Below, piece by piece: positions 4,727 through 31,500 of a stretch of DNA of 36,342 nt. The notes beneath the pieces are model-generated. The model saw only the letters and a list, made by a program, of their open reading frames with translations. It ran no database searches and was not told where the DNA came from. How positions within the stretch are numbered: the stretch's first letter is position 1; each line of letters opens with the position of its first letter. The stretch lies in NCBI GenBank assembly GCA_003509895.1, contig DOMJ01000004.1:1-36342 (forward strand), given 5' to 3'. A program made the translations under genes and the position numbers. The DNA comes from Candidatus Uhrbacteria bacterium. GTDB taxonomy: Bacteria; Patescibacteriota; Patescibacteriia; UBA9934; UBA11717.

Positions 4727-4728
4727 CG

Positions 4729-4757: not shown

Positions 4758-4761
4758 GCCC

Positions 4762-4935: not shown

Positions 4936-4940
4936 AAAAG

Positions 4941-4969
4941 AAACTATCACAAACAAAAATAGAGGTCAA
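4941..4969 (-). promoter_or_regulatory. Sigma70-type promoter of RNA unit 1
   Basis: Minus strand TTGACC-N17-TAGTTT (TGTGATAGT). About 40 nt are near-identical to the unit 2 promoter region. The -35 overlaps the terminator hairpin (ATAGAGG...CCTCTAT) of the upstream gene. Confidence 0.55.
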
Positions 4970-5003
4970 GCCCCTTGCCTCTATTTAAAGAAATAGAACC
5001 ATT

Positions 5004-15947: not shown

Positions 15948-15970
15948 ATGATTTGATTTATTATTGTGAT

Positions 15971-16549: not shown

Positions 16550-16552
16550 ACG

Positions 16553-17245: not shown

Positions 17246-17253
17246 GGTCTGTA

Positions 17254-17280
17254 TTAGCACTCACCATTCTACTCTGCTAG
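17254..17280 (-). promoter_or_regulatory. CIRCE-like HrcA operator (one perfect half, one degenerate half)
   Basis: Minus strand CTAGCAGAG-N9-GAGTGCTAA against the consensus TTAGCACTC-N9-GAGTGCTAA. It overlaps the -10 box and the transcription start of the hrcA promoter. Confidence 0.6.
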
Positions 17281-17294
17281 TTATTGTGTGTCAA
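17266..17294 (-). promoter_or_regulatory. Promoter of the hrcA-grpE-dnaK operon
   Basis: Minus strand TTGACA-N17-TAGAAT. Confidence 0.6.
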
Positions 17295-17362
17295 GAATCG
17301 TCTCCTTTTCTCTCAGCCGGAATACACAAATAAAAAAACCCTGTGCTGCAAGGGTCCTTCTC

Positions 17363-17698
17363 TTATCTGTGACGTTTGCGTATGGAGTGCCCTTTGCGTT
17401 TTGCTACTCGGTCATGATACCGAGCAAAGACAACCTCTCCCACAATACCAATACTTAAAAACATCAACGGGATGCTCAACAAGGCATAGATACTTGTTAT
17501 CAGCCGAGAAGGGTCTGAGGAAGGTGTCAGATCTCCGTAACCCACCGTCGTCACCGTAGAAACAGAAAAATAAAACGCTTGGATCCATGTCCAATCCTCC
17601 AGCCGATGAAAGATGATTGTTCCTCCTATCAACAATGACGCCAAGAGAACAAAAATCAGGCTGATGCGCTTAATAAGCTGATGCGTTATCGCATTCAT
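17363..17698 (-). CDS. Two-TM potassium channel (KcsA-like pore domain only)
   Basis: Selectivity filter TVTTVGYGD between two hydrophobic helices; 111 aa. Confidence 0.85.
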   Translation of the reverse strand: MNAITHQLIKRISLIFVLLASLLIGGTIIFHRLEDWTWIQAFYFSVSTVTTVGYGDLTPSSDPSRLITSIYALLSIPLMFLSIGIVGEVVFARYHDRVAKRKGHSIRKRHR

Positions 17699-17776
17699 AA
17701 AGCTATTGTATCAATAACGAGTTCTTTTCTCTCATTTTTGTGTGGATAACAACTATGATCAAACAGAGGTTTCCCC

Positions 17777-17805
17777 TTGACAAAACAGGTCTTTTGAGAT
17801 ATGTT
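17777..17805 (+). promoter_or_regulatory. Promoter of GC-rich cassette A
   Basis: TTGACA-N17-TATGTT. The context CTTGACAAAA also appears in the cassette B promoter. Confidence 0.55.
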
Positions 17806-17835
17806 CATTTTGTTGGAAAGGTTTATTGAGTCTGT

Positions 17836-17884
17836 GAGATAAGCGCTGTGTTTATCGATCATTGGTAAACAAGGCGCTTGTCTC
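17836..17884 (+). promoter_or_regulatory. Long leader hairpin ending exactly where the GC-rich block begins
   Basis: GAGATAAGCGC (17836-17846) pairs with GCGCTTGTCTC (17874-17884), including one G-U pair. An inner TTTATC/GGTAAA stem is also present. Confidence 0.4.
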
Positions 17885-17938
17885 ATGCACGAGATGGCCG
17901 TGACCGTCCGAAGACGGATCGATTCTAGGGAGACGGTG

Positions 17939-18808
17939 ATGAAGAATTTCACACCCCCGCAGTTGGACATGTTCCGGGAGGCCGCCGCATTGGAGGCCTC
18001 CGTACTCAACCTCAGCCGAGCCCAGTTCCAAGGAGTCCTGGGCCACAAGAGGCTTCGCGGCATGCTGCGAGACCTTCTGGTGGAGCTCGGACAGGAGCGC
18101 CCGCCCAACGCGGACGAGGCTCGCGTGCGTCTGTGGGACCATTTCCTGGGGGTCTCCGATACCCGCAAGGTCTTCGGGGACCTGATCTCGGACAACATGG
18201 TCCGAGAACTGGGCGACGTGCCTGATGCTCTGCTGGCTCGTGTCAAGGCGAGCCAAAGTTCGGGCGAGATGCCGCACCTCCGGCTCTTCCTGGATCCGGG
18301 GCTGTCTATCGACGTCATGGTCCAGGTGCGAGGCGTCAACTACCGGTCCACCTACGGCGACATGATGCTCGCCAGTACCAACCAGCCTTGCTGGCGGCTG
18401 ATGGATGTTCGCCGCTTGCACAACCAGAGTGCCCGGCGGATCCTGACCATGGAGCTGATGGGTCTTCTCTCCAAGGGCATCAGCCAGACGGGTGAGTTGA
18501 AGCAGCTCCAGCTCGTCCGCAAGGACACCGCTGGTCACACGGTCTATATGACCTCGCGACAGGAGGTTCAGGGCCACAAGGTGCAAATTATCGGGTCGGT
18601 TCGGCCGAGCCAGGAGATGACCATCACGGTCCCCCTGATCCGTCCGTCGAACCAGGAATGCCGGCACGCGACGCCGGAAGAGATCCGATCCGCCTACAAC
18701 AGGGAGATTGCGCTGGAAAGCGTTACGCTGCCTGACGGGAGGCGGTTCTTCTCCACCAGGATCGACGGAGTCGTTGTCCTGGTGAGCGAGATCACCTGGA
18801 TCAAGTAG
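17939..18808 (+). CDS. GC3-rich orphan protein A (289 aa from ATG 17939; the track ORF starts at 17885)
   Basis: The open frame has strong G/C third-position bias. GGGAGA SD sits 5 nt before ATG 17939 (MKNFTPPQLDMF...). No motif recognised. The long antisense ORFs here are the expected artefact of GC3 bias. Confidence 0.65.
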   Translation: MKNFTPPQLDMFREAAALEASVLNLSRAQFQGVLGHKRLRGMLRDLLVELGQERPPNADEARVRLWDHFLGVSDTRKVFGDLISDNMVRELGDVPDALLARVKASQSSGEMPHLRLFLDPGLSIDVMVQVRGVNYRSTYGDMMLASTNQPCWRLMDVRRLHNQSARRILTMELMGLLSKGISQTGELKQLQLVRKDTAGHTVYMTSRQEVQGHKVQIIGSVRPSQEMTITVPLIRPSNQECRHATPEEIRSAYNREIALESVTLPDGRRFFSTRIDGVVVLVSEITWIK

Positions 18809-18828
18809 CCCAGCGCCTAGCACCCACG

Positions 18829-18869
18829 AGGGGGGCGTCCGCAATCCTGCGGGCGTCCCCTCTCATTTT
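18829..18869 (+). terminator. Strong intrinsic terminator of cassette A
   Basis: GAGGGGGGCGTCCGCA-ATC-CTGCGGGCGTCCCCTC (about 15 bp with G-U pairs) followed by ATTTTAT. Confidence 0.75.
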
Positions 18870-18956
18870 ATCTATTCCCTATTGACGACTTCCGTTCTTT
18901 CTTATATCCTCTCGTTGCGTTTATTCTTCAAAAGACCCCATCCCGGCCTTGCCGGA

Positions 18957-18978
18957 GACAGCGGGTTCTCATCCCGTT
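18957..18978 (+). pseudogene. tRNA-Glu-like fragment: D-stem 3' strand plus a complete anticodon arm (CUC)
   Basis: GACAGCGGGTTCTCATCCCGTT compared with the intact gene's GACAGCAGGTTCTCATCCTGCA. The stem stays paired but is GC-richer. No T-arm follows. Confidence 0.6.
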
Positions 18979-19013
18979 TACGCTCGATCGTTGCTGAAGC
19001 GCAAAAATAGAAT

Positions 19014-19035
19014 GGCCCCATCGTCTAACGGTTAG
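19014..19035 (+). pseudogene. tRNA-Glu 5' fragment (acceptor 5' strand plus D-arm up to G22)
   Basis: GGCCCCATCGTCTAACGGTTAG is identical to 19200-19221. It then diverges into a GC hairpin, CCGGCGGAGCC-TGGTCC-GGCTTCGCCGG (19037-19064). Confidence 0.7.
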
Positions 19036-19199
19036 CCCGGCGGAGCCTGGTCCGGCTTCGCCGGAGACGTACATCTAATAAAATTCATGTATTATCTCTA
19101 CATAATAAAGAGTGATGTGTTTGATCGTATTTATATCGGTACAACAGCCCATATAGATACGCGTGTAACACAACACAAAATAAAGATTTTCTGTAATAC

Positions 19200-19274
19200 G
19201 GCCCCATCGTCTAACGGTTAGGACAGCAGGTTCTCATCCTGCAAATCCGGGTTCGATTCCCGGTGGGGTCACCA
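19200..19274 (+). tRNA. tRNA-Glu (anticodon CUC), CCA encoded
   Basis: I folded the cloverleaf by hand. Acceptor GGCCCCA/TGGGGTC, D-stem GTCT/GGAC, anticodon stem GCAGG/CCTGC with loop TTCTCAT, a 4-nt variable loop, T-arm CCGGG-TTCGATT-CCCGG, discriminator A, then CCA. Confidence 0.9.
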
Positions 19275-19409
19275 ACAAAAATGCATCAGCTTGCCTGGTG
19301 CTTTTTTGTTGGCACCTCCCGCGGAAATTGAATAAGAGGGATGGTAAGGGAGAACTTCTCCCTTACTTGGGGAGGGTAACAGCGAATCCGTTTTACGGAT
19401 GAGTGCCCT
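19263..19409 (+). repeat. 147-bp direct repeat, copy A (starts inside the tRNA-Glu 3' end)
   Basis: Hand alignment with 20613-20759 shows 142/147 identical positions. The five mismatches are at repeat positions 40, 60, 63, 64 and 72. Confidence 0.9.
19275..19312. terminator. Bidirectional terminator hairpin immediately after tRNA-Glu (part of the 147-bp repeat)
   Basis: ACAAAAA-TGCATCAG-CTTGC-CTGGTGC-TTTTTTGT. In copy B the extended stem is a perfect 18 bp and includes the CCA end. Confidence 0.65.
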
Positions 19410-19473
19410 AGGGGCGGAAGCTCCTAGGGAGAGTGGAGCCGCCCATAGTCACGGGCGTGCGAAGCGACGTGAG

Positions 19474-19491
19474 TTCCCGGTGGGGTCACCA
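19474..19491 (+). repeat. Exact 18-nt duplicate of the tRNA-Glu 3' end (TTCCCGGTGGGGTCACCA)
   Basis: Identical to 19257-19274. No T-arm or 5' acceptor partner lies upstream. Confidence 0.85.
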
Positions 19492-19493
19492 GA

Positions 19494-19527
19494 AACATCG
19501 TCTCAGAAATGAGGCGATGTTTTTTTG
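19494..19527 (+). terminator. Strong intrinsic terminator right after the duplicated tRNA 3' end
   Basis: AACATCGTCTCA-GAAA-TGAGGCGATGTT (12-bp stem, GNRA loop) followed by TTTTTTT. Confidence 0.8.
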
Positions 19528-19566
19528 TAATATTCCATATCCCTCCCTGATCCCTTTTACAAAGCT

Positions 19567-20361
19567 TTGAGGGGTGTATTCATTGGTGCTATACTTAGTT
19601 CACTGGTGGTAAGTATACATTGTTTATACTCTTCACTGGTTTTTTCATCAAGACTGTTGTGTATGGACGTTATGAAAATGACACCGAAGATTTATCGAGA
19701 TACCCCTTTCTTCTTTTGGAGCATGGTTGTGTACTTTTTGGTATTTCCGATCTTGTATCTTGTCATGGATATTTTCCTTGCCGTGTCCATTATTTTTCCT
19801 CTTGTTCTCATCGGATCGATAGGGAGCCTGATAAAAGATCGGTTGTTGGGCAAGGTTGGATCAATCTTACTTCTGCTTCCATTAGTCTTAGGGTTCATTC
19901 CAGAAGGTTCGAAAGAATTTCTCGAGGGCGTGTCGAGGTTGTATCCATATTTACTGATGCTGTTCTTTGTCGTTATTTCTGTCGTGGAATTTCATAAACA
20001 GTTCAAACAAAGAGTGCATGTAGAAGATAAACGTTTGACCGTTCTAAAGAGAGGTCTTGCTGTGAATGCATTTGTTGTATTTTTCGCAGGCTGGCAAGGA
20101 CTTGTTGACTATTCAAATGGTCAGACCCAGCCATTCCTATTGGCTATTGAAGAAAACGTGCCCTTCTTCAATAGCGTAAAACTTTTACATTTCATCCTTC
20201 CTGTATTTGCACTCATCTCACTTGTGGGATTCTGCGCTTCTCTTTTCATCTATCTCAAGCATAAAAGATACGGCAAGTACGTTCTTTGGTACGCGCTATC
20301 CTTATGCGTATCGTTGTTGCTGTTTAGCTTTTTGTTCATGCTAGGCATCGCAGGTGTTTAG
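19567..20361 (+). CDS. AT-rich polytopic membrane protein (264 aa; start uncertain)
   Basis: ORF track (TTG start; internal ATGs at MDVMKM). Six to seven hydrophobic helices. Its composition is clearly AT-richer than its surroundings. Confidence 0.55.
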   Translation: MRGVFIGAILSSLVVSIHCLYSSLVFSSRLLCMDVMKMTPKIYRDTPFFFWSMVVYFLVFPILYLVMDIFLAVSIIFPLVLIGSIGSLIKDRLLGKVGSILLLLPLVLGFIPEGSKEFLEGVSRLYPYLLMLFFVVISVVEFHKQFKQRVHVEDKRLTVLKRGLAVNAFVVFFAGWQGLVDYSNGQTQPFLLAIEENVPFFNSVKLLHFILPVFALISLVGFCASLFIYLKHKRYGKYVLWYALSLCVSLLLFSFLFMLGIAGV

Positions 20362-20612
20362 GATTTCTTGGGGCTGGTTAGAGAGAAGTTCTCAGATACT
20401 CACTCGGAACACATCCAGTATTTCACTTGGTGTTTTGTTTAGAGCAGTTATTACATTCTTATTCGAAGAAGTGTCTTTAAAATCTCCTAATAATACGGTA
20501 GTACATTGAATTAGATAACTCTTCCCGATCCGTCATACCCCCGCCACAACCAACTCTCGAAACTCCATCCACCCCCTCATCTCCTCCACCCATTGGTTCC
20601 AACGAAGTCCCC

Positions 20613-20759
20613 GTGGGGTCACCAACAAAAATGCATCAGCTTGCCTGGTGCATTTTTGTTGGCACCTCCCGTGGGGATTGAATCAGAGGGATGGTAAGGG
20701 AGAACTTCTCCCTTACTTGGGGAGGGTAACAGCGAATCCGTTTTACGGATGAGTGCCCT
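20613..20759 (+). repeat. 147-bp direct repeat, copy B (preceded by an imperfect tRNA 3' end, TCCCCGTGGGGTCACCA)
   Basis: See copy A. Confidence 0.9.
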
Positions 20760-20918
20760 CTACCCGATGTTGAATTTCTAAAAAGGAAAGAGTCCGTTGT
20801 GCAGGAACAAAGAATTAAGAACCAACTTAGTCAGGAAAAATATAAAGCCCGTGCTAAGAACGACGCGCTCCCAGTAGAGGGGACTTGTCGTCTCGCGCGG
20901 GGCGAGAGATGGGCGTTC

Positions 20919-21281
20919 TCAGATGCCAGAGATCTCCCGCACACGCGGGAGGAGTGGTAGAACGTCGTAGAGGAGCAGGCGGGAGTGGTGCCTGCCGGAG
21001 AGCTCTTGGAGGATCATCTCCTCGTGTCGAAGACACAGGAGCAACGTCACTCGAAGGTGCGTCAGATCACTTTCACCGTGTATTCCTATGATCTTCCTGC
21101 CGCGGTGGTGGTGAAGATGTGTCGGCGGGAACTCGCCGTTCTCAAGAAGCCTCGGTGTGAACGGGCTTCCGTTCTTGAGTGGTGCATCGCCGTCCAGACG
21201 CTGTGCGAGCGTCGCCCTATCGACGATTCCACCAAAACGATCAAGTTTCCACCACCAAACTCGGTTTTTCAAGTCGGGCAT
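20919..21281 (-). CDS. Small GC-rich orphan ORF (120 aa), possibly a truncated remnant
   Basis: GAGGAG SD 5 nt before ATG 21281 (MPDLKNRVWWWKLDRFGG...). GC-rich sequence continues for about 65 nt past the stop. No motif recognised. Confidence 0.4.
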   Translation of the reverse strand: MPDLKNRVWWWKLDRFGGIVDRATLAQRLDGDAPLKNGSPFTPRLLENGEFPPTHLHHHRGRKIIGIHGESDLTHLRVTLLLCLRHEEMILQELSGRHHSRLLLYDVLPLLPRVREISGI

Positions 21282-21532
21282 GATCACTCCTCAGATGTTT
21301 CGGCTGCCCCTGCCGTAGGGTGTCTTGCGACCCAAAAAGGTATCACAAAAGACGCCTTTTCGTCTAGGCGGCAGTGGCCTCGTATTTAACGACTCAACGA
21401 CAGGGTCACTAAATGCACATGAGTGAACACTCGTGTGTTTTGTTCTTCATTCTTCAATGTATCAAAATATCAACGGCAAAGGTCATAACCGTCCCTGCGG
21501 GTTTGTTGTCGTTGCCACTCGCCATCGCGTGG

Positions 21533-21570
21533 ATAAAAAGTTTAAGCCCCCAACCGGAAGGTGGAGGCTT
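21533..21570 (-). terminator. Terminator of the 171-aa GC3-rich ORF
   Basis: Minus strand AAGCCTCCACC-TTCC-GGTTGGGGGCTT followed by AAACTTTTTA. Confidence 0.55.
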
Positions 21571-21590
21571 GTCGTCGTTATTTGCCCTTG

Positions 21591-22106
21591 TTACTTGCAG
21601 ACCTGGCTCAAATCTGCCACAGAAGACAGAGCACCCTTGGCCTGCATGACTTTCAGGACGTCCCGATTGAGTCCCCCAAACTCCTCAGACACCCTGGTAA
21701 AGTGCCGGATCAGCTTCTCAAACTCCTTTTCAACCGCTAAATACCGGAACTCCGTGTACGGACGCTTGAGCTCCGCCTTGAAGGCGCTCAGCTCAAAGCG
21801 GTCGTATTCCCTATCGTCCAGGAAGATCTGGACCCCCATCACGGCAAGGATGAAGAGATTCTCATCCGCGTAACCTGTATCTCTGTTTGAGACCAACAGA
21901 GCCAGCGTTGCACGTGCCGTCTTCCAGAACTCTGCGTGCTTCTTGTAGAGCTGTTCCAGCTCCCAGGTCCTACACAGAATCTCCAGATCCATCGGTACTT
22001 GAGCAGACGGGGTCTTTTCGACCGCCCCCTCCGGCGTGGATAGCACCCTCGCCGGAAGCAGCACTCCAACCAACACCATCATCAATAAAAGCGACTTCCC
22101 TCGCAC
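21591..22106 (-). CDS. GC3-rich secreted orphan protein (171 aa from GTG 22106; the track ORF starts at 22193)
   Basis: A TTGACA-N17-TACTGT promoter lies inside the first 15 codons of the track ORF. AAGGAG SD sits 5 nt before GTG 22106. That start gives a classic signal peptide (RGK, then SLLLMMVLVGVLLPA). The rest uses CTG/GAG/AAG/TTC-type codons. Confidence 0.55.
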   Translation of the reverse strand: MRGKSLLLMMVLVGVLLPARVLSTPEGAVEKTPSAQVPMDLEILCRTWELEQLYKKHAEFWKTARATLALLVSNRDTGYADENLFILAVMGVQIFLDDREYDRFELSAFKAELKRPYTEFRYLAVEKEFEKLIRHFTRVSEEFGGLNRDVLKVMQAKGALSSVADLSQVCK

Positions 22107-22152
22107 GATGTCTCCTTGTAAACCTGTACCGATCACGAAAGCGAACAAAGCG

Positions 22153-22181
22153 ACAGTAAGGGAATGCCGTCGGTTTGTCAA
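22153..22181 (-). promoter_or_regulatory. Promoter of the 171-aa GC3-rich ORF, starting 16 nt after the CPA2 stop codon
   Basis: Minus strand TTGACA-N17-TACTGT. Confidence 0.5.
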
Positions 22182-22196
22182 TGGTTCTCTCACTTT

Positions 22197-23861
22197 TTAC
22201 GCGCCAAACTTTTTTGCCTCTGTGTGCCAAGAGCGCTTTGCCGTTTTCTTTTTTTTCAGCAGCTCGGAAAAAAACGCTCCTCCCATTACGCTCGGCACAA
22301 TCACAAACGTCGCTCCCCGTTTATACAATGAGTCCGCGTCTACGCTACTACGCGCCGTTACAATCACCACCGTTTTTGCCTTTTTTCTACCCACGAACCC
22401 TAAAATCTCCTCATTCACTTCCCTGTCCGGAATCGTAGAAACAATCAGCTTTGCCTTATGAGCTTGTACCGTATATAAAAGCTCTTCGTTAGAAACATCA
22501 CCATACGTTGCACGTACAGGAAAATCATTCAACCGTTCTATTTGATGTGGGTCGTAATCCACAACTAAAACGTCTTTGTGAACCCCCAGAAGAGATGACA
22601 AAATAGCCGCTCCCATATCTTGATACCCAAAAAGTAAAATCGCTGCGGCCCTTTCTCTTTTTCCATCACTTCCTTGCTGTTGTGGCGCCATCCATTCAAA
22701 GAGCCATCCAATTTTTTTGTAAATATGTTCACCATACAAAATAAGATAAGAGGAAATGGCAATCGTTACCATTCCAACAACGGTCGCCAGAGGTAATACG
22801 GTGGGATCAATCAACCCTGCAGCGATTCCACCCGCCAACACAATAAAAGAAAATTCGCTAATTTGTGCCACGGTCGCGCCCGTCATAAATCCCGCGCGAG
22901 GGTGATACCCTATAAAACGCAAAAGTGGCATCACAATCAACGGCTTCCCAATCAACACAAAAAGACTAAAGATAAGCGCCGGAAACCACACCGTTTGTAG
23001 TGAATCAAACGAAAGGTTTGTACCCAGCACAATAAAGAAGATAATGAGAAAGAAATCACGCAGTGGCTTGATTTTTAATTCAATTTCTCGATGGAAGCCT
23101 GTCCCCGCCAAAGAAATACCGGCCAGAAGCGCGCCAATCTCAATACCAAATCCCAGAAAAAAGAGAGCGCTTGTAACCACAAAGCACCAACCGATCGCCG
23201 TCAAAAAGAGCAGCTCCTGCAAACGGGCCGCATACCGAAACAGGCGAGGCAAAAGAAAGCGCGCCACAAACCACAATCCAATTAACACCACTCCCGCCTT
23301 GAGCAAGGAGGTAGAAATTAACTCGCCTAAACTACCGCCATCGCGTAGTGCCCCCAACACCAGCAGCAACCCCATTGCCAACAAATCCTGAACAATCAAA
23401 ATACCAACGCTCAATTTTCCGTGCAGTCGCTCAAGTTCCTCCTTATCTGCAAGCAACTTGACCACAACAATGGTACTGGAAAACGCAAAGGCGATCCCTA
23501 AAAAAAGACTTGTCGTCGCCGTAAATCCAAGCAGCGTTCCCACAGCAAAACCAAGACCCGCCGTAAGGAACGTTTGTCCCAGTCCAACCAAAATCGCCAC
23601 CGATCCAATCTCCTTCATGCGGCGCCAGTCCAAATTCATTCCAACAAGAAACAGTAGGAAGGCAATGCCCACCTCAGAAAAAGCAAGCATTGTTTCCGTC
23701 TGATGCACAAATCCCAAGACTCCGGGACCAATCATAAGCCCGGCCAACATATAAGCAATAATAAGCGGCTGCCTGATTCTAAAAGCCAATAAGGCCAAAC
23801 CACTGGCAATAATGATTACAAACGCAATCTGCAAAAAAATATTTTGAAGGAGAAACTCCAT
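22197..23861 (-). CDS. CPA2-family cation:proton antiporter with a C-terminal RCK/TrkA-N domain (Kef-type)
   Basis: 554 aa. About 12 TM helices, followed by a Rossmann-like ILLFGYQDMGAAI segment. Confidence 0.8.
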   Translation of the reverse strand: MEFLLQNIFLQIAFVIIIASGLALLAFRIRQPLIIAYMLAGLMIGPGVLGFVHQTETMLAFSEVGIAFLLFLVGMNLDWRRMKEIGSVAILVGLGQTFLTAGLGFAVGTLLGFTATTSLFLGIAFAFSSTIVVVKLLADKEELERLHGKLSVGILIVQDLLAMGLLLVLGALRDGGSLGELISTSLLKAGVVLIGLWFVARFLLPRLFRYAARLQELLFLTAIGWCFVVTSALFFLGFGIEIGALLAGISLAGTGFHREIELKIKPLRDFFLIIFFIVLGTNLSFDSLQTVWFPALIFSLFVLIGKPLIVMPLLRFIGYHPRAGFMTGATVAQISEFSFIVLAGGIAAGLIDPTVLPLATVVGMVTIAISSYLILYGEHIYKKIGWLFEWMAPQQQGSDGKRERAAAILLFGYQDMGAAILSSLLGVHKDVLVVDYDPHQIERLNDFPVRATYGDVSNEELLYTVQAHKAKLIVSTIPDREVNEEILGFVGRKKAKTVVIVTARSSVDADSLYKRGATFVIVPSVMGGAFFSELLKKKKTAKRSWHTEAKKFGA

Positions 23862-23862
23862 A

Positions 23863-25602
23863 CTAGGCGGCGAGGTGTTGTTGATCTCCCTTATTGCCCT
23901 CTTCCGACGATTGGCTCGGTTGACGTTTGCCCAGCAGGTCTTGCAGTTCTGTCCATTCGCTTTCTGTGAGCGGTCTCTCTACCAATTGCCTCTGGCGCGC
24001 CTCTTCAATAAGCATGTCTATTTCTTGCCTCTCCGCTCCCTCCAACTCAACAGGCTCTAAAAGCGGCGGCCCTCCAATCGTTGCAAGAACATCCTGTGCC
24101 AAGATACACACAATCTCCGCATCCTCACGCGTGCGAATTGCAGCACATTCTTTTTTTAACAAGGCTATTTGGTATCCTCGCTCGGCCTCCGCATCTCCAT
24201 TGTACAGGGCAAACTGTTTATCCACGGCGTCTACCAAGCGTTGAGCCTCCTGTTTTGTTTGCGTTTCTCCTTCCTCGGCCAATGCCAACACCTCTTTTTG
24301 ACGCACAAAATCATACTCCCTTTCCTCAAACAACTCGTCCAGGATATCCGAAAGCGTTTCCGATAGCACATGCATGTCCATTCCTAGTCCATCGGCGTAT
24401 TTTTGCCAGGCTGCAACACGTTCTCCCTTCTCTGCGTTTGCATGCGGCAAAACAATATCCCATGTCAATTCTGCCAGTCGCAATTCTGCAGGGCTCAACG
24501 GTTGCCCCGTTTGTTGCGTAATAAATGTTTGAATCGATTCGCGACTTGTTGCCGTTTTATAAAACGTTCCATGGATTTGCTCTTCTATTTGTACAAGTAG
24601 GGGCCGCTGTATTTTAATCCGATCAAGGGAAACAAGGCGCAACCACCGCGCTAAGCACATGCCAAGGGAATACAGGTCTTCCAACGACTTTTGTTGCATA
24701 CCGCCAGCATAGATCTCCGGCGCTGCATAGCGCGGGGTTCCACTAAAATCGTCTTTTCTTCTTGGCACATCTATGTGCTCCGCTAAACCAAAGTCCACCG
24801 CGCGCGCCAAATGCGGCAGTTCCTGATCCATGCGAATATTGTTGGGCTTAATGTCTCCATGAGACCAGCCGAGGCGATGTAGGCTCTGTATGTGCTGTAC
24901 CACCGATTCCATGGCAACCGCCCCTATTGCCCTCTCTGTGTGCGCCCTGTCTGCCGTGTTATAAAAATCAAATGCGTCTAATGATGCCTGCATATCTTCT
25001 CCCGGTAAAAACGCCAGCAGCATACCAAGCGCTCGCTCACCATGCGCATCTTCTACGCGTCGCAGGTCTTGTAGTGCGCCAATTTTTATAGAAGCCGCAA
25101 TCTCTTGTTCAAGATGTCTTTTTCTGTCTCCAATCTGCTCAATGTCAGTGCGTAACTCTGCTCCAGACGGCAGACTTGCCACTTCCTTATAATGTTTTTC
25201 TATTTCCTTTCGTGAGGGTTCGTAGAGATATTTCATGGCAGCCACACGCCCGCGTGGTCCGATCATGGCTCGCTCCCATCCGGCGCGAGGAGTCTGACGC
25301 ACCCGAAACACCTCTCCAAAAGCCCCTCTCCCAAGACGATCCTCAACATGCCAATCCTTACCAAATAATTGCACAAATTCTTCTTGTTGCTCGAGTGAAA
25401 ATAAACTCGCAGATTCTATCATCTGCACCGGAAACACCTCCAATGCGACTCCTTCATTCTCCGTAAGAGCATGCGGTAATTCTTTTTCCTCGGTGAGATC
25501 TATCTCCGCACTCTCCTCTGATAATTCCAATTCCCCCGCACGTGCGGCCTTACGCGCGGCGGTTTCTTCTGCCCAGCCTACATGATGTCCTCCAAAATCC
25601 AT
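23863..25602 (-). CDS. Ser/Thr protein kinase (Hanks type) with a long C-terminal extension
   Basis: GRGAFGEVFRV glycine loop, HGDIKPNNIR catalytic loop, VDFGLAE, and GTPRYAAPE. Confidence 0.85.
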   Translation of the reverse strand: MDFGGHHVGWAEETAARKAARAGELELSEESAEIDLTEEKELPHALTENEGVALEVFPVQMIESASLFSLEQQEEFVQLFGKDWHVEDRLGRGAFGEVFRVRQTPRAGWERAMIGPRGRVAAMKYLYEPSRKEIEKHYKEVASLPSGAELRTDIEQIGDRKRHLEQEIAASIKIGALQDLRRVEDAHGERALGMLLAFLPGEDMQASLDAFDFYNTADRAHTERAIGAVAMESVVQHIQSLHRLGWSHGDIKPNNIRMDQELPHLARAVDFGLAEHIDVPRRKDDFSGTPRYAAPEIYAGGMQQKSLEDLYSLGMCLARWLRLVSLDRIKIQRPLLVQIEEQIHGTFYKTATSRESIQTFITQQTGQPLSPAELRLAELTWDIVLPHANAEKGERVAAWQKYADGLGMDMHVLSETLSDILDELFEEREYDFVRQKEVLALAEEGETQTKQEAQRLVDAVDKQFALYNGDAEAERGYQIALLKKECAAIRTREDAEIVCILAQDVLATIGGPPLLEPVELEGAERQEIDMLIEEARQRQLVERPLTESEWTELQDLLGKRQPSQSSEEGNKGDQQHLAA

Positions 25603-25604
25603 AC

Positions 25605-26915
25605 TTATGTGCTAAGCCATTTTCCATATTGTCGCACAAGCACTTCCGGCGCCTTGAGCGGTTCCGCCATAAGCTCCTTTACAATCTTTTCCATGCGTGC
25701 ACCCTGTGATCCTTTTACCAACAAAACGTCGCCTCGCTTCATGCGCTCTTGCAAAAATCGTCCGGCATCAACCGAGTTGGCATAGGTATACACCTGCGTT
25801 TGCGCCATCCCATGTTCCAATGCGGAGCGCGCAGCATCTCGTGCGTGTTCACCAACCGTCACAAAAAGATCAATCGGCAGTGAGGCGACGTGCTTCCCTA
25901 CATCTGCGTGCGCCTGTTTAGAATATCGACCTAACTCGAGCATATCTCCAATTGCGGCAATCCGCTGAGAGATTGGATTAATCGGAACGCTGCAGAGTAC
26001 CTCTAAGGCTGCATGAACGGCTTCGGGCGATGCGTTATACGTGTCGTCTATAAGCAGGGCAGCGATAATGCCGGGTAACAACCGTAATCGACCCGGCATG
26101 GGCACATAGTTGGCAACATTTTTTGCAATGGTGTCCGGCGACAATCCAAGCTGTAACGCAACCGCCGCGCCCGCCAAAACGGACCGTACATGCGTATCTC
26201 CAATCACGTCCTTCATCACCACGGGCACGGAATCCCTTCCCATTTTTAATAAAAACGTAAGCCGAGATAGTGATTCACCTACAAGCGTCTCTCCATTTGG
26301 CCGCATGTCTACATGAATATCTTGCGCGGTGATATCTGCCAATCCAAGTCCGTAACTCACCACGGAACCTTTCGCGAGATGGCACATATCCGCCACGTTA
26401 CCATCATCGGCGTTTAAAATAGCAATCCCGTCTGCCGCAAGACCACGAATAAGTGATCCCTTTTCTTCCTTCACGTCCTCTAATGTGCCAAAAAATTCTG
26501 CGTGCGCCACTCCCACGGCCGTCACTACCGCTATGTAGGGCTTGGCAATCTGACACAGGTATTGAATATCTCCACGTGCGTCCGCGCCGTACTCAAGCAC
26601 CAAAATCTCCGGATAATTATGTGCGCCACCCAAAGAACAACGCCAGCCGCGCCAAAGCACGGCTAGCCATCCAAAAAACGAACGCCCCGGAGACCGTTCA
26701 CCCAAAATAGTCAGGGGAACGCCAATCTCATTGTTATAGTTTTCCCCTGTTGCTCGTACGCGACGCGTGGAACCAATCGCCGCCACAATAGCATGGCGCG
26801 TAGATGTTTTACCCACGGACCCGGTAATGGCAATAACTTTCGGCTTGTAAGCGCGAAGTGTTTTTTTAGCAAGGTGTGCAAGAACTCGTTGAAGAAGATG
26901 TTTCATACAGGACAA
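25605..26915 (-). CDS. murF: UDP-MurNAc-tripeptide--D-Ala-D-Ala ligase
   Basis: Mur-ligase P-loop ITGSVGKTSTR and the MurF-type IDDTYNASPEA motif. Located directly after ftsI. Confidence 0.8.
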   Translation of the reverse strand: MSCMKHLLQRVLAHLAKKTLRAYKPKVIAITGSVGKTSTRHAIVAAIGSTRRVRATGENYNNEIGVPLTILGERSPGRSFFGWLAVLWRGWRCSLGGAHNYPEILVLEYGADARGDIQYLCQIAKPYIAVVTAVGVAHAEFFGTLEDVKEEKGSLIRGLAADGIAILNADDGNVADMCHLAKGSVVSYGLGLADITAQDIHVDMRPNGETLVGESLSRLTFLLKMGRDSVPVVMKDVIGDTHVRSVLAGAAVALQLGLSPDTIAKNVANYVPMPGRLRLLPGIIAALLIDDTYNASPEAVHAALEVLCSVPINPISQRIAAIGDMLELGRYSKQAHADVGKHVASLPIDLFVTVGEHARDAARSALEHGMAQTQVYTYANSVDAGRFLQERMKRGDVLLVKGSQGARMEKIVKELMAEPLKAPEVLVRQYGKWLST

Positions 26916-26933
26916 AAACGCAGCTCTAAACGG

Positions 26934-28751
26934 CTATCGTTCTGGGGGAATTTGTTTATAGTGTAGCAGAAAATCCGCAATCTCCCCAAACAGAGGAGCG
27001 GCTGTTCCCGTGGCCCATTGGGAAGAACGCGGGTGATCAATACGCGTCAGCATCACAAACCGAGGATCGCGTGCCGGACCGTATCCCACAAATGTAGCAA
27101 TCGTCTCATCTGACTTGTAGCCCGTGCCACTGTCATTGGCCACCTGTGCCGTTCCTGTTTTTCCAGCGATATAGTATCCATCCACCTTCGCCGGACCCGC
27201 ATGCCCATTTTCTACCACGGAGACAAGCATTGCCGTTACAAGTTGGGCTGTTTTTGACGAGATCACTTGGCGCAATTGTTCTGGTTCTGTCGCCTCTACT
27301 GTTCCATCCGGATATCGAATCTCCTTTACAATGTAGGGTTGCATCATCGCTCCTCCGTTTGCAAGGGCCGTAAAAGCGCGTGCCATTTGTAGCGGAGTAA
27401 CCGTTAATCCTTGCCCGTAAGAGCTTGTTGCCGAGTAAATTTCTTGCCCTTTATCCACAGCGCTAATTTCTCCCTGTACCTCACTGTTGAGTGGGATACC
27501 GATCGCTTCACCAAATCCAAAGTCATGCACATACCGCGCAAACACATCCCCGCCCATTTTGCGCATCACAAAAATCATTCCGGTATTGAGCGACCTTTCC
27601 AGCACATTTGTCATTGTTTGGATACCGTTTGCCTTTAAGTCAGAATTGCGAATCGTAAAACGATCAATTTTTTCTTCACCTGTATCGTTGTAGGTCATAT
27701 TGGGCGTTACCACTCCCGAATCTAACCCCGCCGCCATAATCAATGGTTTAAAAACAGAACCCGGTTCATACGCAGAAAAAATCGTCTGATTATTATATGT
27801 TGCAACCGATTCAACCTCGCTGTAAGCGTTTGGATTATAGGTTGGCACTCCACACATGGCCCAAATAGCTCCCGTTTTTGCATCCAAAATAATCAGTGAT
27901 CCACTATCGGCATCAAATCGATCTACGTTCTCTTGCAGCTTTGTGCAGGCAACGTGCTGAATAGTGCGATCAAGCGTTAACACAAGATCGGCACCGTCCT
28001 GCGCACTTTGCAAGTTGCGTGCACCTATACTGATCCAGTTTCCTTTTGCATCCAATTCAGAAAACAAAAACCCAGGCTGACCCGCAAGCGTCTCATTAAA
28101 GTATCCTTCCAAGCCGTATTTCCCACTGGATGTTCCATCGGCATCTTCACTCACAAACCCGGTTATATGGGCCGTTGTTTCCTCTTCCGGGTAATAGCGA
28201 AATTGTTCACGGAGCAAATGAATTCCCGAAAGATTCGCCAAATGAATCTCATTGCCGACTTCCTCCGATACGCGGCGTTTAATCGGTTCGTATGGGTCGT
28301 CGGCTTTTTGAAGTTGTGCCAAAACGCGATCATATTCGGATGGGCTTTGTTCTGTTTTTCCCTCCTCGTTTATAGATTCAACAACCTCGTGAGACAATCC
28401 GAGGATATCGGAAAGCACCTGCGCCGTTCTGACAGGGTCGTCCACCTTGCGCGGCTCCGCCCAAACCAGGTTAAGATATTGATTTGTGGCAATGGCGACC
28501 TCTGTTCCATTTGCATCCTGCACAATAAGGGATCCACGTTGTGGGTAGAGATCTTTGTAGAGCTCCCGTTGACCACTCGCCAATGCCTCATACACTCCAT
28601 GTTTGAGCACCTGTAAGTACCCAAGACGGACAATTAAAATCGCCGCCGCCAAAAAAAATCCCGCCTGCAAAAGCCGAATACGGCGTGGATGTATAGCCGA
28701 CACGGAACGTTTGCCGTAATGCGTACGTGTTTTAGAGGTTTTTTGTGTCAT
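26934..28751 (-). CDS. ftsI: Class B penicillin-binding protein / peptidoglycan transpeptidase
   Basis: N-terminal TM anchor, SVFK (SxxK) and KTGTA motifs; 605 aa. Confidence 0.85.
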   Translation of the reverse strand: MTQKTSKTRTHYGKRSVSAIHPRRIRLLQAGFFLAAAILIVRLGYLQVLKHGVYEALASGQRELYKDLYPQRGSLIVQDANGTEVAIATNQYLNLVWAEPRKVDDPVRTAQVLSDILGLSHEVVESINEEGKTEQSPSEYDRVLAQLQKADDPYEPIKRRVSEEVGNEIHLANLSGIHLLREQFRYYPEEETTAHITGFVSEDADGTSSGKYGLEGYFNETLAGQPGFLFSELDAKGNWISIGARNLQSAQDGADLVLTLDRTIQHVACTKLQENVDRFDADSGSLIILDAKTGAIWAMCGVPTYNPNAYSEVESVATYNNQTIFSAYEPGSVFKPLIMAAGLDSGVVTPNMTYNDTGEEKIDRFTIRNSDLKANGIQTMTNVLERSLNTGMIFVMRKMGGDVFARYVHDFGFGEAIGIPLNSEVQGEISAVDKGQEIYSATSSYGQGLTVTPLQMARAFTALANGGAMMQPYIVKEIRYPDGTVEATEPEQLRQVISSKTAQLVTAMLVSVVENGHAGPAKVDGYYIAGKTGTAQVANDSGTGYKSDETIATFVGYGPARDPRFVMLTRIDHPRSSQWATGTAAPLFGEIADFLLHYKQIPPER

Positions 28752-28770
28752 TTGCCTTTAGTATACCACC

Positions 28771-28799
28771 TTGACAAAATCCGCATTTTCTGATAGGTT
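28771..28799 (+). promoter_or_regulatory. Promoter of GC-rich cassette B, 20 bp from the divergent ftsI start codon
   Basis: TTGACA-N17-TAGGTT in the context CTTGACAAAAT. Confidence 0.55.
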
Positions 28800-28912
28800 A
28801 GACCGTCACATTCCGTCTGAGGTTTGTGCAAAATTCACCAGAAGCAGGCCTGTTTAAGGCTATGCAACACATTTAATTTGATCTGCGCCTACGTGCGCGA
28901 GAGGAGGACGCG

Positions 28913-31060
28913 ATGAGCGTGAAGAAGATTGGTTGGATGGGCTTCCACTCGGGTCGTCCGCATTTGGACGACTTGTTGGCAGCCGTGGTTGGATTCCTGC
29001 TTGGCCTCTTTGAGGTCGAGTTCATGGATCCCGAGTGCTCGGTGAACCTGATCCTGGACGCGAGCGGCATCTCCAATGCCCTGGCGCGCCAGATGAGCGA
29101 GACGGGGCGGGACGCCAACGGTGTGCAACTGCACGCCGCGTGGATCGGTACCACCCCCAACGGTGGGCCCTCCCTCGTCTCCGAGGGCGACCAGTGGTGG
29201 TCGCCCTACGACGAGCACGGGAGTGGCAACCCCGCGGACTCGGCCACGGAGCTTATGCTCCATCTGGCCGGAGACGACAAGGCCATTGGCCGGCGGCTCC
29301 AGACCATCTTCCGGGGATGGGGCATCCGCGCCTCGGAGGCGCAGGTCGCGGAGTCGGTGGAAAAGCTCCACCACTTTGTGGCCTACACTACCATGAAGGA
29401 CAACTTTCCCGTCGCCATGCGCGGCGGAATCAGCTGGCTCCTCAAGCAGCTGAACCGGGTGTCCTGCTTCCAGATCGGAGAAGGTGGAAGGATCCGGGAG
29501 GAGTCCTACTCCTCCCAGGAGGTCCTCCGGGACCTCCGGTGGATCTACCGCCTGCTCGTCACCTACATGACGAGCAACCTGCAGATTGAGACCTCCGATC
29601 TGGCCGCCGTGGACCAGGAGATGGTTCACTGGTACCTCGGTCGCGAGGACGTGAACCAGGTATGGAAGCCGGACACCGCTCCGCGCACGATGGCGGAGCT
29701 GACGGTCATGGTCCGGGGGGAGGTGCGCCGAAAGGCGCTGGAGGCCAAAAAGGCCAACCGGGCGTTCAGCCCGCCCTCCACGCTGCTCCGCCGTTTGCGG
29801 AGCCTCACCACACTGGTGAGTGACCTGCGCAACCCAGCCGATTGGACATCGGTGGAGGCATGGATGCTCCACCAGTGGATCGGGGCCAGGAAGATCCACC
29901 TCGGGATGGACGTGGGCAACACCACGACCATCCAGGAGGTGATCGCCAACCTCGCCGCCCGCGCGGAAGCTCTCAAGGAGAGCGCGCGGGCGGACGCAGT
30001 CCGCCAGCAGGAGAAGCTGGAGGGCTGGATCCGACAGCTGCAGGAGATGCAGCTGCGCGTGGAGGACGAAAAGCAGACCCGCCAGCTGATGGCGGGAGAT
30101 GAACGGATGGACGAGCGGACCGCCGCCTCCCCCTACGGGGTGGTGGCGACCACCGTCCTGCTCCTGCGGCGTTCCCGCCGCAGGGACGGCCTGGCCTTCC
30201 CCGAGGGTCAGGCCGTGGCCCAGGAGTACCTCTTCATGGCGCTGGATGCGCTGTGGGGAAAGATGCTCCTTGCGGAGGCAGCCTCCCGTCAGATCCAGGA
30301 GGCACAGGAGGACCCCACCTGTACGCCGGCCATCGCGGCCGACTGGCAGGTGAAGGGAGTGGAGCAGCCGGGACTGCTCCACTCCGATGGCATCAACCCC
30401 GAGACCCCGGCGGAGGCCCGCCGGATCTTGGGCAAGGGCCAGGTGGGTGGTCGCCAGGTGAAGCGTTTCCCGCTGATCCTGGTCACCTGCGAGAAGCTGC
30501 CAGACGGGACTCCCTTTGGGAGCGCCTATCTAGGAGCTGACCAGCGGTACTTCGGTACCGACTGGACGGACGGATTCTTCCGTCACCTCGCGTCCTGGCT
30601 CCGAGTCATGGAACTCCGGCGCCAGGGCAACCCGTTGCCGGAGGACCTCGATACCCTCGAGGCGCCGGACAAGGTGCAAGACCACGTCTGGTTCCTGCAC
30701 CTCAACGGGGACGGAAAGGCCGTCCAGGTGATGGCAAAGAGCCTCCACCGCCGGGATTCACCCGGTACGGAGCTGGACGCCAAGCAGGAGATCCTGCCCG
30801 CCCAACTGGCGGTCTACACGGTCTTCTGTGCGTGGCGTGCTGTCGGAGTCTTTGGCAGCCAGCAAGGCCGCCTCAACCTCCGGGCGCGAGACAGCGCCCT
30901 GCGGGCGCTCCGCCACCGCCTCGCCTCCACCGCCGACATGGCCGCGGAGCTGCAGCTCATCCTGAGCGAGCTCCGCAGCCAGATCGTCATCCACCAGGCC
31001 GCCGTCCTCCCCCTACGGGAGTCGAAGGCGCCGGGTGAAGAGCTCGCCCCCACGAGCTAA
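28913..31060 (+). CDS. GC3-rich orphan protein B (715 aa), Trp/Arg-rich with a central coiled-coil-like segment
   Basis: GAGGAGG SD 6 nt before the ATG. 715 stop-free codons in sequence where I counted 40/60 and 44/60 G+C in two sample lines, with pronounced G/C at third positions. No catalytic motif recognised. Confidence 0.7.
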   Translation: MSVKKIGWMGFHSGRPHLDDLLAAVVGFLLGLFEVEFMDPECSVNLILDASGISNALARQMSETGRDANGVQLHAAWIGTTPNGGPSLVSEGDQWWSPYDEHGSGNPADSATELMLHLAGDDKAIGRRLQTIFRGWGIRASEAQVAESVEKLHHFVAYTTMKDNFPVAMRGGISWLLKQLNRVSCFQIGEGGRIREESYSSQEVLRDLRWIYRLLVTYMTSNLQIETSDLAAVDQEMVHWYLGREDVNQVWKPDTAPRTMAELTVMVRGEVRRKALEAKKANRAFSPPSTLLRRLRSLTTLVSDLRNPADWTSVEAWMLHQWIGARKIHLGMDVGNTTTIQEVIANLAARAEALKESARADAVRQQEKLEGWIRQLQEMQLRVEDEKQTRQLMAGDERMDERTAASPYGVVATTVLLLRRSRRRDGLAFPEGQAVAQEYLFMALDALWGKMLLAEAASRQIQEAQEDPTCTPAIAADWQVKGVEQPGLLHSDGINPETPAEARRILGKGQVGGRQVKRFPLILVTCEKLPDGTPFGSAYLGADQRYFGTDWTDGFFRHLASWLRVMELRRQGNPLPEDLDTLEAPDKVQDHVWFLHLNGDGKAVQVMAKSLHRRDSPGTELDAKQEILPAQLAVYTVFCAWRAVGVFGSQQGRLNLRARDSALRALRHRLASTADMAAELQLILSELRSQIVIHQAAVLPLRESKAPGEELAPTS

Positions 31061-31093
31061 CCCCCTCCTGCACATGGAGGGACGCGAAAAAAG

Positions 31094-31130
31094 AGGGGCT
31101 CCGCAATCTGCGTGAGCCCCTTTTCCTTTT
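31094..31130 (+). terminator. Terminator of cassette B, homologous to the cassette A terminator
   Basis: AGGGGCTC-CGCA-ATC-TGCG-T-GAGCCCCT followed by TTTCCTTTT. Confidence 0.75.
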
Positions 31131-31140
31131 ATCTCTTTTT

Positions 31141-31500
31141 CTATTGTGCCGCAGCGATCGCTGCAACAAGTTTTGCCCTGAGACCCGTGAACGCCGTAAC
31201 GGCTGCCTCATAATCTTCATCTCGAATCGCACGCGATCCCACATACCCTTCTTCCTCCCACGCGCTCAGCTGCGTAGCATCGACACCTGCAGTACTCGCA
31301 TCAATGAGCAATTGACCAACTTCGAGCATCAAATTCAACGACTCCGTTTTTGCAGCACTGTTCATAACAGGTACTGTGGCGCTTGGCACCTCTTGCGGAG
31401 GAGCCGCGATCGGTTCTGGCGTAATCGAATCAGATGGTTGAGAAAAACACCCGGCTCCTAAAAAAGAAACAGCCGCCAGAGATAAAATGAGTTTGTTCAT
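31141..31500 (-). CDS. Small lipoprotein
   Basis: Signal peptide with lipobox: MNKLILSLAAVSFLGAGC. Confidence 0.7.
   Translation of the reverse strand: MNKLILSLAAVSFLGAGCFSQPSDSITPEPIAAPPQEVPSATVPVMNSAAKTESLNLMLEVGQLLIDASTAGVDATQLSAWEEEGYVGSRAIRDEDYEAAVTAFTGLRAKLVAAIAAAQ

Follow-up and report, generated by a model that had tools for sequence, protein, structure and literature searches.

GC3-rich orphan genes in a Candidatus Uhrbacteria contig: candidates for a resident, clade-restricted gene class with maintained G/C-ending codons

Atypical base composition is routinely read as proof that a bacterial gene was recently acquired from elsewhere, and AT-richness is what one expects of orphan genes. 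Genomic islands and other horizontally acquired genes of atypical composition are commonly understood through the amelioration picture of Lawrence and Ochman; bacterial ORFans, as Daubin and Ochman reportedly found in 2004, are usually short, AT-rich and fast-evolving; GC-biased gene conversion is said, after Lassalle et al. in 2015, to act on recombining bacterial genes; and minorities of genes may be set apart by their codons, as in the bldA/TTA regulon of Streptomyces and in modification-tunable transcripts. Here, these described systems are compared with four open reading frames (ORFs A to D) on contig DOMJ01000004.1 of a Candidatus Uhrbacteria bacterium (assembly GCA_003509895.1), of which the analysed stretch of 36,342 nucleotides (positions 1 to 36,342) is called the window throughout. 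A first-pass annotation of the window had taken the four to be self-contained cassettes rich in G+C at third codon positions (GC3), drawn as one accessory pool from a high-GC donor and then domesticated with native expression signals. The analysis reported here supports a different account, judged on balance to be probable: A to D are fast-evolving, clade-restricted genes without recognisable domains, in which G/C-ending codons are maintained, and do not constitute one acquired system. The four ORFs are as follows:

17939..18808 (+): ORF A, 289 aa, GC3 0.82, a strain-level orphan recognised by codon composition
20919..21281 (-): ORF B, 120 aa, GC3 0.65, recognised by codon composition, coding status doubtful
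21591..22106 (-): ORF C, 171 aa, GC3 0.70, GTG start, with the Shine-Dalgarno (SD) sequence AAGGAG 5 nt before the start
28913..31060 (+): ORF D, 715 aa, GC3 0.86, a new clade-restricted family

With a G+C content of 50.1% overall, the window has a 500-nt profile that runs at ~0.44-0.55 (~0.48), with peaks of 0.59-0.63 at 18001-19000 and 0.65-0.69 at 29001-31000. Against 25 comparison genes in the window (GC3 0.483±0.041, range 0.41-0.60) the z-scores for GC3 are 8.2 for A, 4.2 for B, 5.4 for C and 9.3 for D, and the claim that all four are compositional outliers is upheld. Uniform they are not: both GC3 and a codon-usage likelihood ratio place A and D at the extreme and B and C only in an intermediate position. 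The shift is plain in the codon counts of A and D taken together (GAA/GAG 11/56, AAA/AAG 1/32, CAA/CAG 7/49, TTT/TTC 5/22) when set against those of native genes (255/346, 226/222, 193/151 and 282/83, in the same order). In A and D, GC3 exceeds G+C at first positions, which in turn exceeds that at second positions, the order typical of genuine GC-rich genes. C and G are about equally frequent at third positions (C3 ~ G3 ~ 0.42), a simple effect of G/C versus A/T, and the effective number of codons (ENC) is 38-42 against 41-44 expected from GC3 alone (for D, 38 against 41); translational selection for particular codons was set aside because ENC equals this expectation. The shift reaches the amino acids as well, with R/(R+K) at 0.71-0.76 in A, B and D and 0.50 in C, for a background of 0.54. 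It ends sharply at the edges of the ORFs, the untranslated regions (UTRs) and intergenic parts of the cassettes having a G+C content of 0.42-0.54.

None of the four proteins has a match in Pfam, NCBIfam, PHROGs or PADLOC, which confirms the earlier failure to recognise any motif in them, and neither phmmer nor jackhmmer finds mutual similarity among A, B, C, D and the orphans of related loci. The first-pass annotation is borne out in that the ORFs stand apart in composition and lack known domains, and in that they form self-contained units between operons. As for each ORF having its own promoter, SD and hairpin, the quoted signals do exist as sequence, but promoter-like and terminator-like sites are no more frequent in these regions than in shuffled sequence, so such matches do not count as independent evidence. 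Three other sources of the GC excess were examined and rejected. A non-coding RNA or intron in the GC-rich stretches was dropped because the Rfam search returned only tRNA-Glu(CUC) at 19200-19274; an effect of strand or replication orientation, because GC3-rich genes lie on both strands relative to their neighbours; and an overlapping antisense gene, because the antisense frame varies from 167 to 728 codons among orthologues and is as open as codon usage predicts. GC-rich DNA does give rise to long antisense ORFs, for example at 28889-30382 (-) and 17852-18844 (-).

D is the best studied of the four. Its relatives number four among 5.8 billion protein clusters, and an exhaustive profile search recovered nine representatives in all among 1.84 billion, with none in GTDB species representatives, IMG/VR, plasmids or phages; the closest ftsI in GTDB, from a metagenome-assembled genome labelled 'Patescibacteria group', is itself at 36% identity. 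This match, the 976-kb contig of one relative and the groundwater and marine origin of the samples make a CPR/Patescibacteria-like bacterium with a small genome the most likely source. D stands divergently from ftsI-murE-kinase-CPA2; downstream of it come a small lipoprotein-like gene, DUF5665, a CobA/BtuR-like gene and a reductase gene. The slot is the same in the related loci L001, L002/L003, L006, L007, L012/L013 (Tara ocean), L014 (GCA_964636795.1) and L015, and in L016 and L017 (976-kb contig) D adjoins ftsI upstream of CPA2; this covers every member of the family with retrievable context. The dcw cluster is here reduced to ftsI-murE (26934-28751 and upstream), followed by the kinase-like gene and CPA2. 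In the distant relative L004, ftsI is preceded by mraZ, rsmH and ftsL; here these three genes are lacking, and the upstream position is taken by D, on the opposite strand. The GC3 of D and of its flanking genes was compared across ten lineages:

Window: D 0.86, flank 0.49
L006: D 0.88, flank 0.47
L001: D 0.87, flank 0.57
L002: D 0.82, flank 0.55
L007: D 0.85, flank 0.62
L012: D 0.84, flank 0.65
L014: D 0.92, flank 0.72
L015: D 0.74, flank 0.39
L016: D 0.82, flank 0.53
L017: D 0.82, flank 0.55

D lies above its flanks in 10/10 lineages (0.74-0.92 versus 0.39-0.72), by a log-odds offset that is roughly constant at 1.48±0.32, and its GC3 rises with that of the background (r = 0.65, p = 0.04; r = 0.81 when the non-independent L006 is left out). 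Between the window and L001, identity at the 4-fold sites of D is 0.39, about the calculated chance level, so the synonymous sites are saturated; both copies nevertheless stand at GC3 0.86-0.87, which rules out a single import followed by amelioration. Nor would a fixed external reservoir track the resident background, as the GC3 of D does. Judged from these sequences, D appears to be an old resident whose bias is maintained and not fading.

D evolves quickly and has been exchanged at least once as a block. In 35 of the 36 genome pairs, D has diverged 1.7-4.6 times as far as ftsI in amino-acid sequence; its ratio of non-synonymous to synonymous divergence (dN/dS) lies at 0.24-0.33, compared with 0.03-0.06 for the flanks. 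The single exception is the pair formed by the window and L006, with a D/ftsI ratio of 0.48. In this pair ftsI is 85% identical (dS 1.78) and the 119-aa gene downstream of D 77% identical (dS 1.78), compared with 93% identity, dN 0.037 and dS 0.157 for D itself. Column-by-column alignment places the edges of the similar tract at ~28755 and ~31177, both of them sharp, and the tract takes in the promoter-like site, the 5'UTR, the SD, the coding sequence, the terminator and ~35 nt of the next gene:

28755..31177 (+): D cassette, the exchanged tract, ~94-100% identical to L006 inside and ~77% outside
28771..28799 (+): promoter-like site of D, TTGACA-17-TAGGTT, read from the sequence
28901..28907 (+): SD of D, GAGGAGG, read from the sequence
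31093..31132 (+): terminator-like hairpin of D with T-run, 100% identical in L006

The simplest reading of this pattern is that homologous recombination recently replaced the cassette as a whole, between lineages that lie ~23% apart in flanking DNA. Codon bias was considered as a source of the low synonymous divergence and rejected: ENC is as expected, dN is low too, and the pair L001-L002 has no such deficit. The GC3-rich genes bear the sign of recombination in this tract and in a mosaic of A described below, and for movement as horizontal units, another element of the first-pass annotation, there is direct evidence in the case of D and probable support in that of A.

A, B and C occupy a rearranged stretch between a channel gene and CPA2, and all three are absent from every related locus, in which the same stretch holds other genes, namely TrmB and different GC3-rich orphans. 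The signals around A read as follows:

17777..17805 (+): promoter-like site of A, TTGACA-17-TATGTT, 10/12 matches
18830..18861 (+): terminator-like hairpin of A, a 14-bp stem with T-run, from a sequence scan

Public gene callers start A at 17885 (307 aa). Beyond its own exact copies, A has a sole relative, the 248-aa fragment P0006 on L096 (86.5% nucleotide and 78% amino-acid identity), and no other emerged from the 5.8 billion clusters and IMG/VR. The two sequences differ by 108 substitutions without indels and with the frame kept (dN 0.129, dS 0.233); the substitutions fall near-evenly across codon positions, and the centre is more diverged (dS 0.5-0.7), as in a mosaic. The sample accession of L096 neighbours that of L006, and if L096 belongs to an L006-type genome, the synonymous divergence of A would be far below that of core genes. 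A probably moves horizontally as a unit. A terminator module common to A and D (TCCGCAATC…) was also considered, and discarded as not above chance.

The following elements adjoin B and C:

20842..20906 (-): hairpin-forming element of ~62 nt just 3' of B, 93-95% identical to L037 4166-4225
22153..22181 (-): promoter-like site of C, TTGACA-17-TACTGT, read from the sequence

It is doubtful that B is a gene at all. Its sequence is odd, one public annotation calls an opposite-strand ORF in its place (20985-21389 (+), 134 aa), and related loci hold no homologue, the large protein databases not having been searched with B. Its promoter-like site reads TAGACG-18-TACCTT. The ~62-nt element beside it was absent from other loci and from IMG/VR; its copy in L037 adjoins the 3' end of an unrelated GC3-rich, lipoprotein-like ORF in a lineage whose CPA2 protein is only ~49% identical, and the element could be a common cassette end or terminator module. 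C matches only itself among the 5.8 billion protein clusters and nothing in IMG/VR. Its N-terminus carries a hydrophobic segment that resembles a signal peptide or membrane anchor, and its promoter-like site falls below the scan threshold at the second hexamer, for which reason the scan did not list it.

The architecture of the stretch itself centres on a tRNA gene:

18957..19056 (+): tRNA-Glu fragments, with the anticodon arm at 18957-18974 and 23 nt of the 5' acceptor/D arm at 19014-19036 identical to the gene
19200..19274 (+): tRNA-Glu(CUC), intact, a native gene that lies near CPA2 in related loci too
19258..19409 (+): 152-nt direct repeat, copy 1, beginning inside the 3' end of tRNA-Glu
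19567..20361 (+): AT-rich membrane ORF of 264 aa (G+C 0.40) with 6-7 predicted membrane-spanning segments, between the 152-nt repeats
20557..20655 (-): 33-aa remnant of a decayed native gene, with 64% identity to the C-terminal portion of the 170-aa ORF at 16473-16985 of L016
20608..20759 (+): copy 2 of the 152-nt direct repeat, with 96% identity to copy 1

The repeat of the tRNA-Glu fragments runs on to 19056 at 77%, and further fragments lie at 19474-19491 and 20607-20624; those at 18957-19056 are taken as traces that the tRNA gene was a site of rearrangement or integration. Together with the fragments, the 152-nt repeats and the ORF they enclose, which has no family match in Pfam, NCBIfam, PHROGs or PADLOC, have the look of a small insertion or duplication that arose here without an integrase. 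The fragments and the repeat flank parts of the A-C region, and nothing comparable surrounds D.

A to D are not alone in their composition. A gene of 70-85 aa beside an RNase-H-like gene is GC3-rich in this genome and in L001, L002 and L012 (GC3 0.76-0.86 in the latter three) and is a second clade-wide, syntenic GC3-rich family; the copy of this genome, 77 aa with GC3 0.79, lies ~1.6 kb past the right end of the window (L097 8174-8407), between the RNase-H-like gene and a methyltransferase gene. In relatives, a GC3-rich gene of 128-146 aa adjoins TrmB, and one of 249-267 aa lies by the channel and tRNA locus of L002 and L021, where it is 43% identical compared with 54% for CPA2. GC3-rich orphans adjoin tRNA-Glu(CUC) in the window and in L002, L036, L037 and L021. 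For 26 further GC3-rich ORFs from related loci no Pfam match was found in any, and nearly all are singletons; a signal peptide is predicted in some ORFs of relatives, as in C. A scan of 80 more distant loci recovered GC3-rich ORFs in about a dozen, mostly of moderate G+C, and none in those of low G+C (0.27-0.40). To the extent that the incompletely covered literature allows, no description of GC-rich orphan genes in such organisms was found. A to D are therefore best regarded as a sample of a class that is defined by composition and restricted taxonomy, and not as a co-occurring gene set. In every relative D occurs unaccompanied by A, B or C; a single relative is on record for A, and for B and C none was detected. 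The four show no mutual similarity, nor do they co-occur. Lack of co-occurrence is what the first-pass annotation had named as telling against a single pool or system, and that proposal is given up.

The proposed explanation is a fixation bias toward G/C that would be specific to this class of genes and act on top of the normal mutation bias of the genome. D is fixed divergently upstream of ftsI-murE-kinase-CPA2, A, C and possibly B would be strain-specific members at tRNA-Glu(CUC), and whole units from promoter to terminator are occasionally replaced between diverged lineages. An effect that is roughly constant in offset, bounded by the ORF and stable over deep time points to such a bias on these ORFs, and not to their origin. 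Its source may be repair that favours G/C while alleles are frequently exchanged, probably through transformation and homologous recombination, or else selection on the composition of the ORF or its mRNA, and the two are about equally likely. Biased gene conversion agrees with an effect that is simply one of G/C, with its spread into the amino acids and with the exchanges on record. Selection on composition agrees with the sharp limits of the bias at the ORFs and with its stability within families; reliance on tRNAs with C34 or G34 and escape from A/U-targeting nucleases are conjectures on its cause. That host-interaction or surface roles might go with the fast evolution and the signal peptides is a guess.

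A neighbouring gene offers an instructive comparison. The Ser/Thr-kinase-like gene at 23863-25602 (-) shares 24-30% identity with its counterparts in L001 and L002, against 70-82% for its neighbours; between L001 and L002 the figures are 23% for this gene and 92-94% for the neighbours. It looks like a gene replaced by very old alleles, and its GC3 is 0.46-0.50. Relaxed constraint leading to a GC-rich neutral equilibrium was rejected on the grounds that fast-evolving genes of normal GC3 exist and that intergenic G+C is 0.42-0.54.

Several observations weigh against the proposed fixation bias or narrow the form it could take. No bacterial process is known to shift GC3 in a gene-specific manner by 0.2-0.4, and the reported effects of gene conversion in bacteria amount to a few percent. 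GC3 is normal both in the kinase-like gene and in the 119-aa lipoprotein gene, which also evolves fast; rapid evolution by itself, or allelic replacement by itself, therefore does not suffice for the bias. Outside its coding sequence the exchanged tract is not GC-rich, which favours selection on the ORF over regional gene conversion. Exchange is not constant either: between L001 and L002, the dS of D (0.65, against 0.68-1.55 for the flanks) indicates that D diverged together with its surroundings. The correlation of D with its background has a Spearman coefficient of only 0.37 and is drawn from 10 related lineages; the assignment of L096 to the same genome as L006 is inferred, being judged only from adjacent sample accessions; and one must consider that the data seen amount to ~46 kb of this genome and at most ~22 kb per relative.

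Whether the sequences could be an artefact, through chimeric assembly with a high-GC organism or as chance ORFs in non-coding GC-rich DNA, bears on everything above. The readiness of GC-rich DNA to yield long ORFs on both strands lends this some substance, as does B, with its alternative on the opposite strand and its lack of comparative support. For A and D, it is refuted. The exact protein of A occurs on seven contigs, and the four loci retrieved from different assemblies (ENA groundwater ERZ909579, JGI 3300009031 and two Logan runs) agree with the window: L008 and L009 at 99.96-99.97% identity over 7885-28808, both spanning A to ftsI, L010 at 100% over 15510-19234 and L011 at 99.87% over 17793-19295. 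Chimeric junctions, a concern raised at the outset, are thereby excluded on the A side and up to ftsI, since four independent assemblies share them, and the junctions of D recur in two assemblies of this genome and in all relatives. Moreover, D combines a dN/dS of 0.24 with a conserved frame, the expected order of positional G+C and a structural model of pLDDT 87; A keeps its frame over all its substitutions; and the antisense ORFs are predicted by codon usage and not conserved in length among orthologues. Taken over all four ORFs, an artefact is scarcely credible. Acquisition from a high-GC donor, be it the host of an episymbiont or a mobile element of that host, with native promoters added and the donor composition kept, deserves fuller weighing. 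It would account for the atypical composition, for three strain-specific ORFs beside a tRNA gene with fragments, repeats and a gene remnant, for a synonymous divergence of A and D between two lineages far below that of flanking genes, and for cassettes whose non-coding parts are at native G+C. Set against this, no homologue outside the clade turned up in any collection searched (for D the 5.8 billion clusters, 1.84 billion representatives, GTDB, IMG/VR, plasmids and phages; for A and C the clusters and IMG/VR), the window contains neither integrase nor transposase, and an origin from phage, plasmid or defence elements was likewise dismissed, PHROGs and PADLOC being empty and IMG/VR, INPHARED and PLSDB without relatives. 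The GC3 excess, furthermore, persists in syntenic orthologues down to 21-30% identity, in D and at least three other families; D is GC3-rich in 10 lineages, also where synonymous sites are saturated, matches its neighbours in no sampled genome and follows each background. For D a donor is already contradicted, and for the set as a whole it is improbable.

A regulon defined by codon or mRNA composition, acting as sole cause through dependence on C34/G34 tRNAs or through escape from an A/U-targeting RNase, toxin or restriction activity, has several points in its favour. The bias is bounded by the ORF whilst the UTRs of the same transcript and the rest of the tract are native; it is stable over deep time in families, exchanged or not, and is shared by many unrelated families; the orphans lie beside tRNA-Glu(CUC); and AAA, GAA and CAA are near-absent from A and D. 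On the other hand, ENC gives no sign that particular codons are preferred beyond G/C; GAG makes up 58% of Glu codons even in native genes, so that tRNA-Glu(CUC) is not special to the class; the shift extends to amino-acid composition; and the mechanism is a conjecture. As the sole cause it is unlikely, although the composition of the ORF retains its place as one of the two candidate sources under the proposed fixation bias.

A bolder extension of that bias, which is doubtful at present, is that a clade of small-genome bacteria of groundwater and marine systems keeps a GC3-marked compartment of restricted genes, with cassettes swapped at fixed slots and held GC-rich by a class-specific force. 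If true, the force would be either a regulon of codon or mRNA composition (independent of modified U34, resistant to A/U nucleases) or an unusually strong form of biased gene conversion, the bacterial genome would have a new way to partition its genes, and D would be a new enzyme family tied to a division and cell-wall locus.

An AlphaFold model of D built on a 12-sequence alignment reaches pLDDT 87.3 and pTM 0.86, compared with pLDDT 63 in a 5-sequence run. Foldseek returned nothing at E < 0.1 against PDB or BFVD, and the full-length and N-terminal profiles found no sequence match in PDB. D, which belongs to a new family and whose fold is predicted with confidence but has no match, appears to be cytoplasmic: no signal peptide is predicted, and its one borderline hydrophobic stretch (residues 20-39) is modelled as helix and strand. 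Family members span 590-740 aa, with a pattern of gaps that fits one conserved reading frame. Invariant residues are H12, H17, D19, E63, D163, G172, K178, D400, E401, N495, R564 and D590, with D100, E101 and H102 near-invariant, and this cluster of His, Asp and Glu suggests a metal-dependent hydrolase.

The motifs 'FHxGRPHxDD' (H-x4-H-x-D-[DE]) and 'DEHG' presumably recall the MYG1/DHH phosphoesterases, a lead only, to which profile searches lend no support: no Pfam match at E <= 1 was obtained in 12 family members, leaving DHH, DHHA1 and UPF0160 unsupported. The likeness consists of this N-terminal and D-E-H-G pattern together with weak Foldseek matches. These are to biotin-protein ligases and DHH-family enzymes, family II pyrophosphatases among them, with TM-scores up to 0.22; the DHH matches have E values of 0.16-0.7 (yeast PPX1 2qb6, E 0.16 and probability 0.44; 1k20, E 0.26; a viral 'DHH family phosphohydrolase' in BFVD, E 0.69). 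D differs from those enzymes in being twice as long, in its extra helical and alpha/beta domains and in the lack of any significant sequence match. As a conserved and, by prediction, well-folded family without assignment, beside ftsI in a reduced division cluster, it makes a target for structural and biochemical work.

Elsewhere, the window encodes hrcA-grpE-dnaK-dnaJ, a K+ channel, the CPA2 antiporter, the Ser/Thr-kinase-like protein, a Mur ligase, ftsI, DUF5665 and a class II ribonucleotide reductase. Between dnaK and dnaJ lies a gene for a 321-aa protein (13079-14044 (-)) with one predicted N-terminal membrane segment, normal GC3, a relative in L052 and no Pfam match. At 5616-6860 (-) there is a truncated HSP70-like paralogue of 414 aa, 28% identical to DnaK, which has the top GC3 among native genes (0.60). 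Lastly, two tandem units of G+C ~0.58 lie at 4465-4990 (-), between cysS and the next gene. Both begin with the promoter-like sequence GGGCTTGACCTCTwTTTTTGTyTGTGATAsTTTC and end in a GC hairpin with T-run (4795-4773 and 4495-4467). They show no codon periodicity, match no Rfam family at gathering score and are candidates for new small RNAs.

The wider relevance of these genes lies in D holding 20-40 GC3 points above its neighbours past the loss of synonymous signal, in genomes whose own GC3 ranges over 0.39-0.72. Should the pattern prove genome-wide, detection of horizontal transfer by composition would misclassify a resident class of genes, and the clade would offer a natural system in which to separate biased gene conversion from selection at synonymous sites in bacteria. 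Among the described systems, genomic islands share with this locus an atypical codon usage, the strain-specific position of A to C beside a tRNA gene with repeats, and exchange in the case of A and D. They differ in that the genes here are GC-richer and not AT-richer than the genome, without mobility genes or donor homologues, and that D and other families, which keep the bias in syntenic orthologues, have not ameliorated. Codon-defined regulons resemble it in having a minority of genes set apart by their codons, with a tRNA gene in the locus; here, however, all codon families are shifted in place of one rare codon, and the regulatory link is hypothetical. GC-biased gene conversion has in common with it the plain shift to G/C, the spill into first and second positions, the recombinational replacement and the roughly constant log-odds offset, but the shift of +0.2 to +0.4 in GC3 is far above those reported, and both the UTRs and the hypervariable kinase-like gene are unenriched. 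The ORFans are alike in their lack of domains and of homologues outside a narrow clade and in their faster protein evolution (dN/dS 0.24-0.55). Their compositional departure is nonetheless of the opposite sign to that seen here, where GC3 is 0.65-0.86 against 0.48, and D, at 715 aa, is long and has a confidently predicted, ordered fold.

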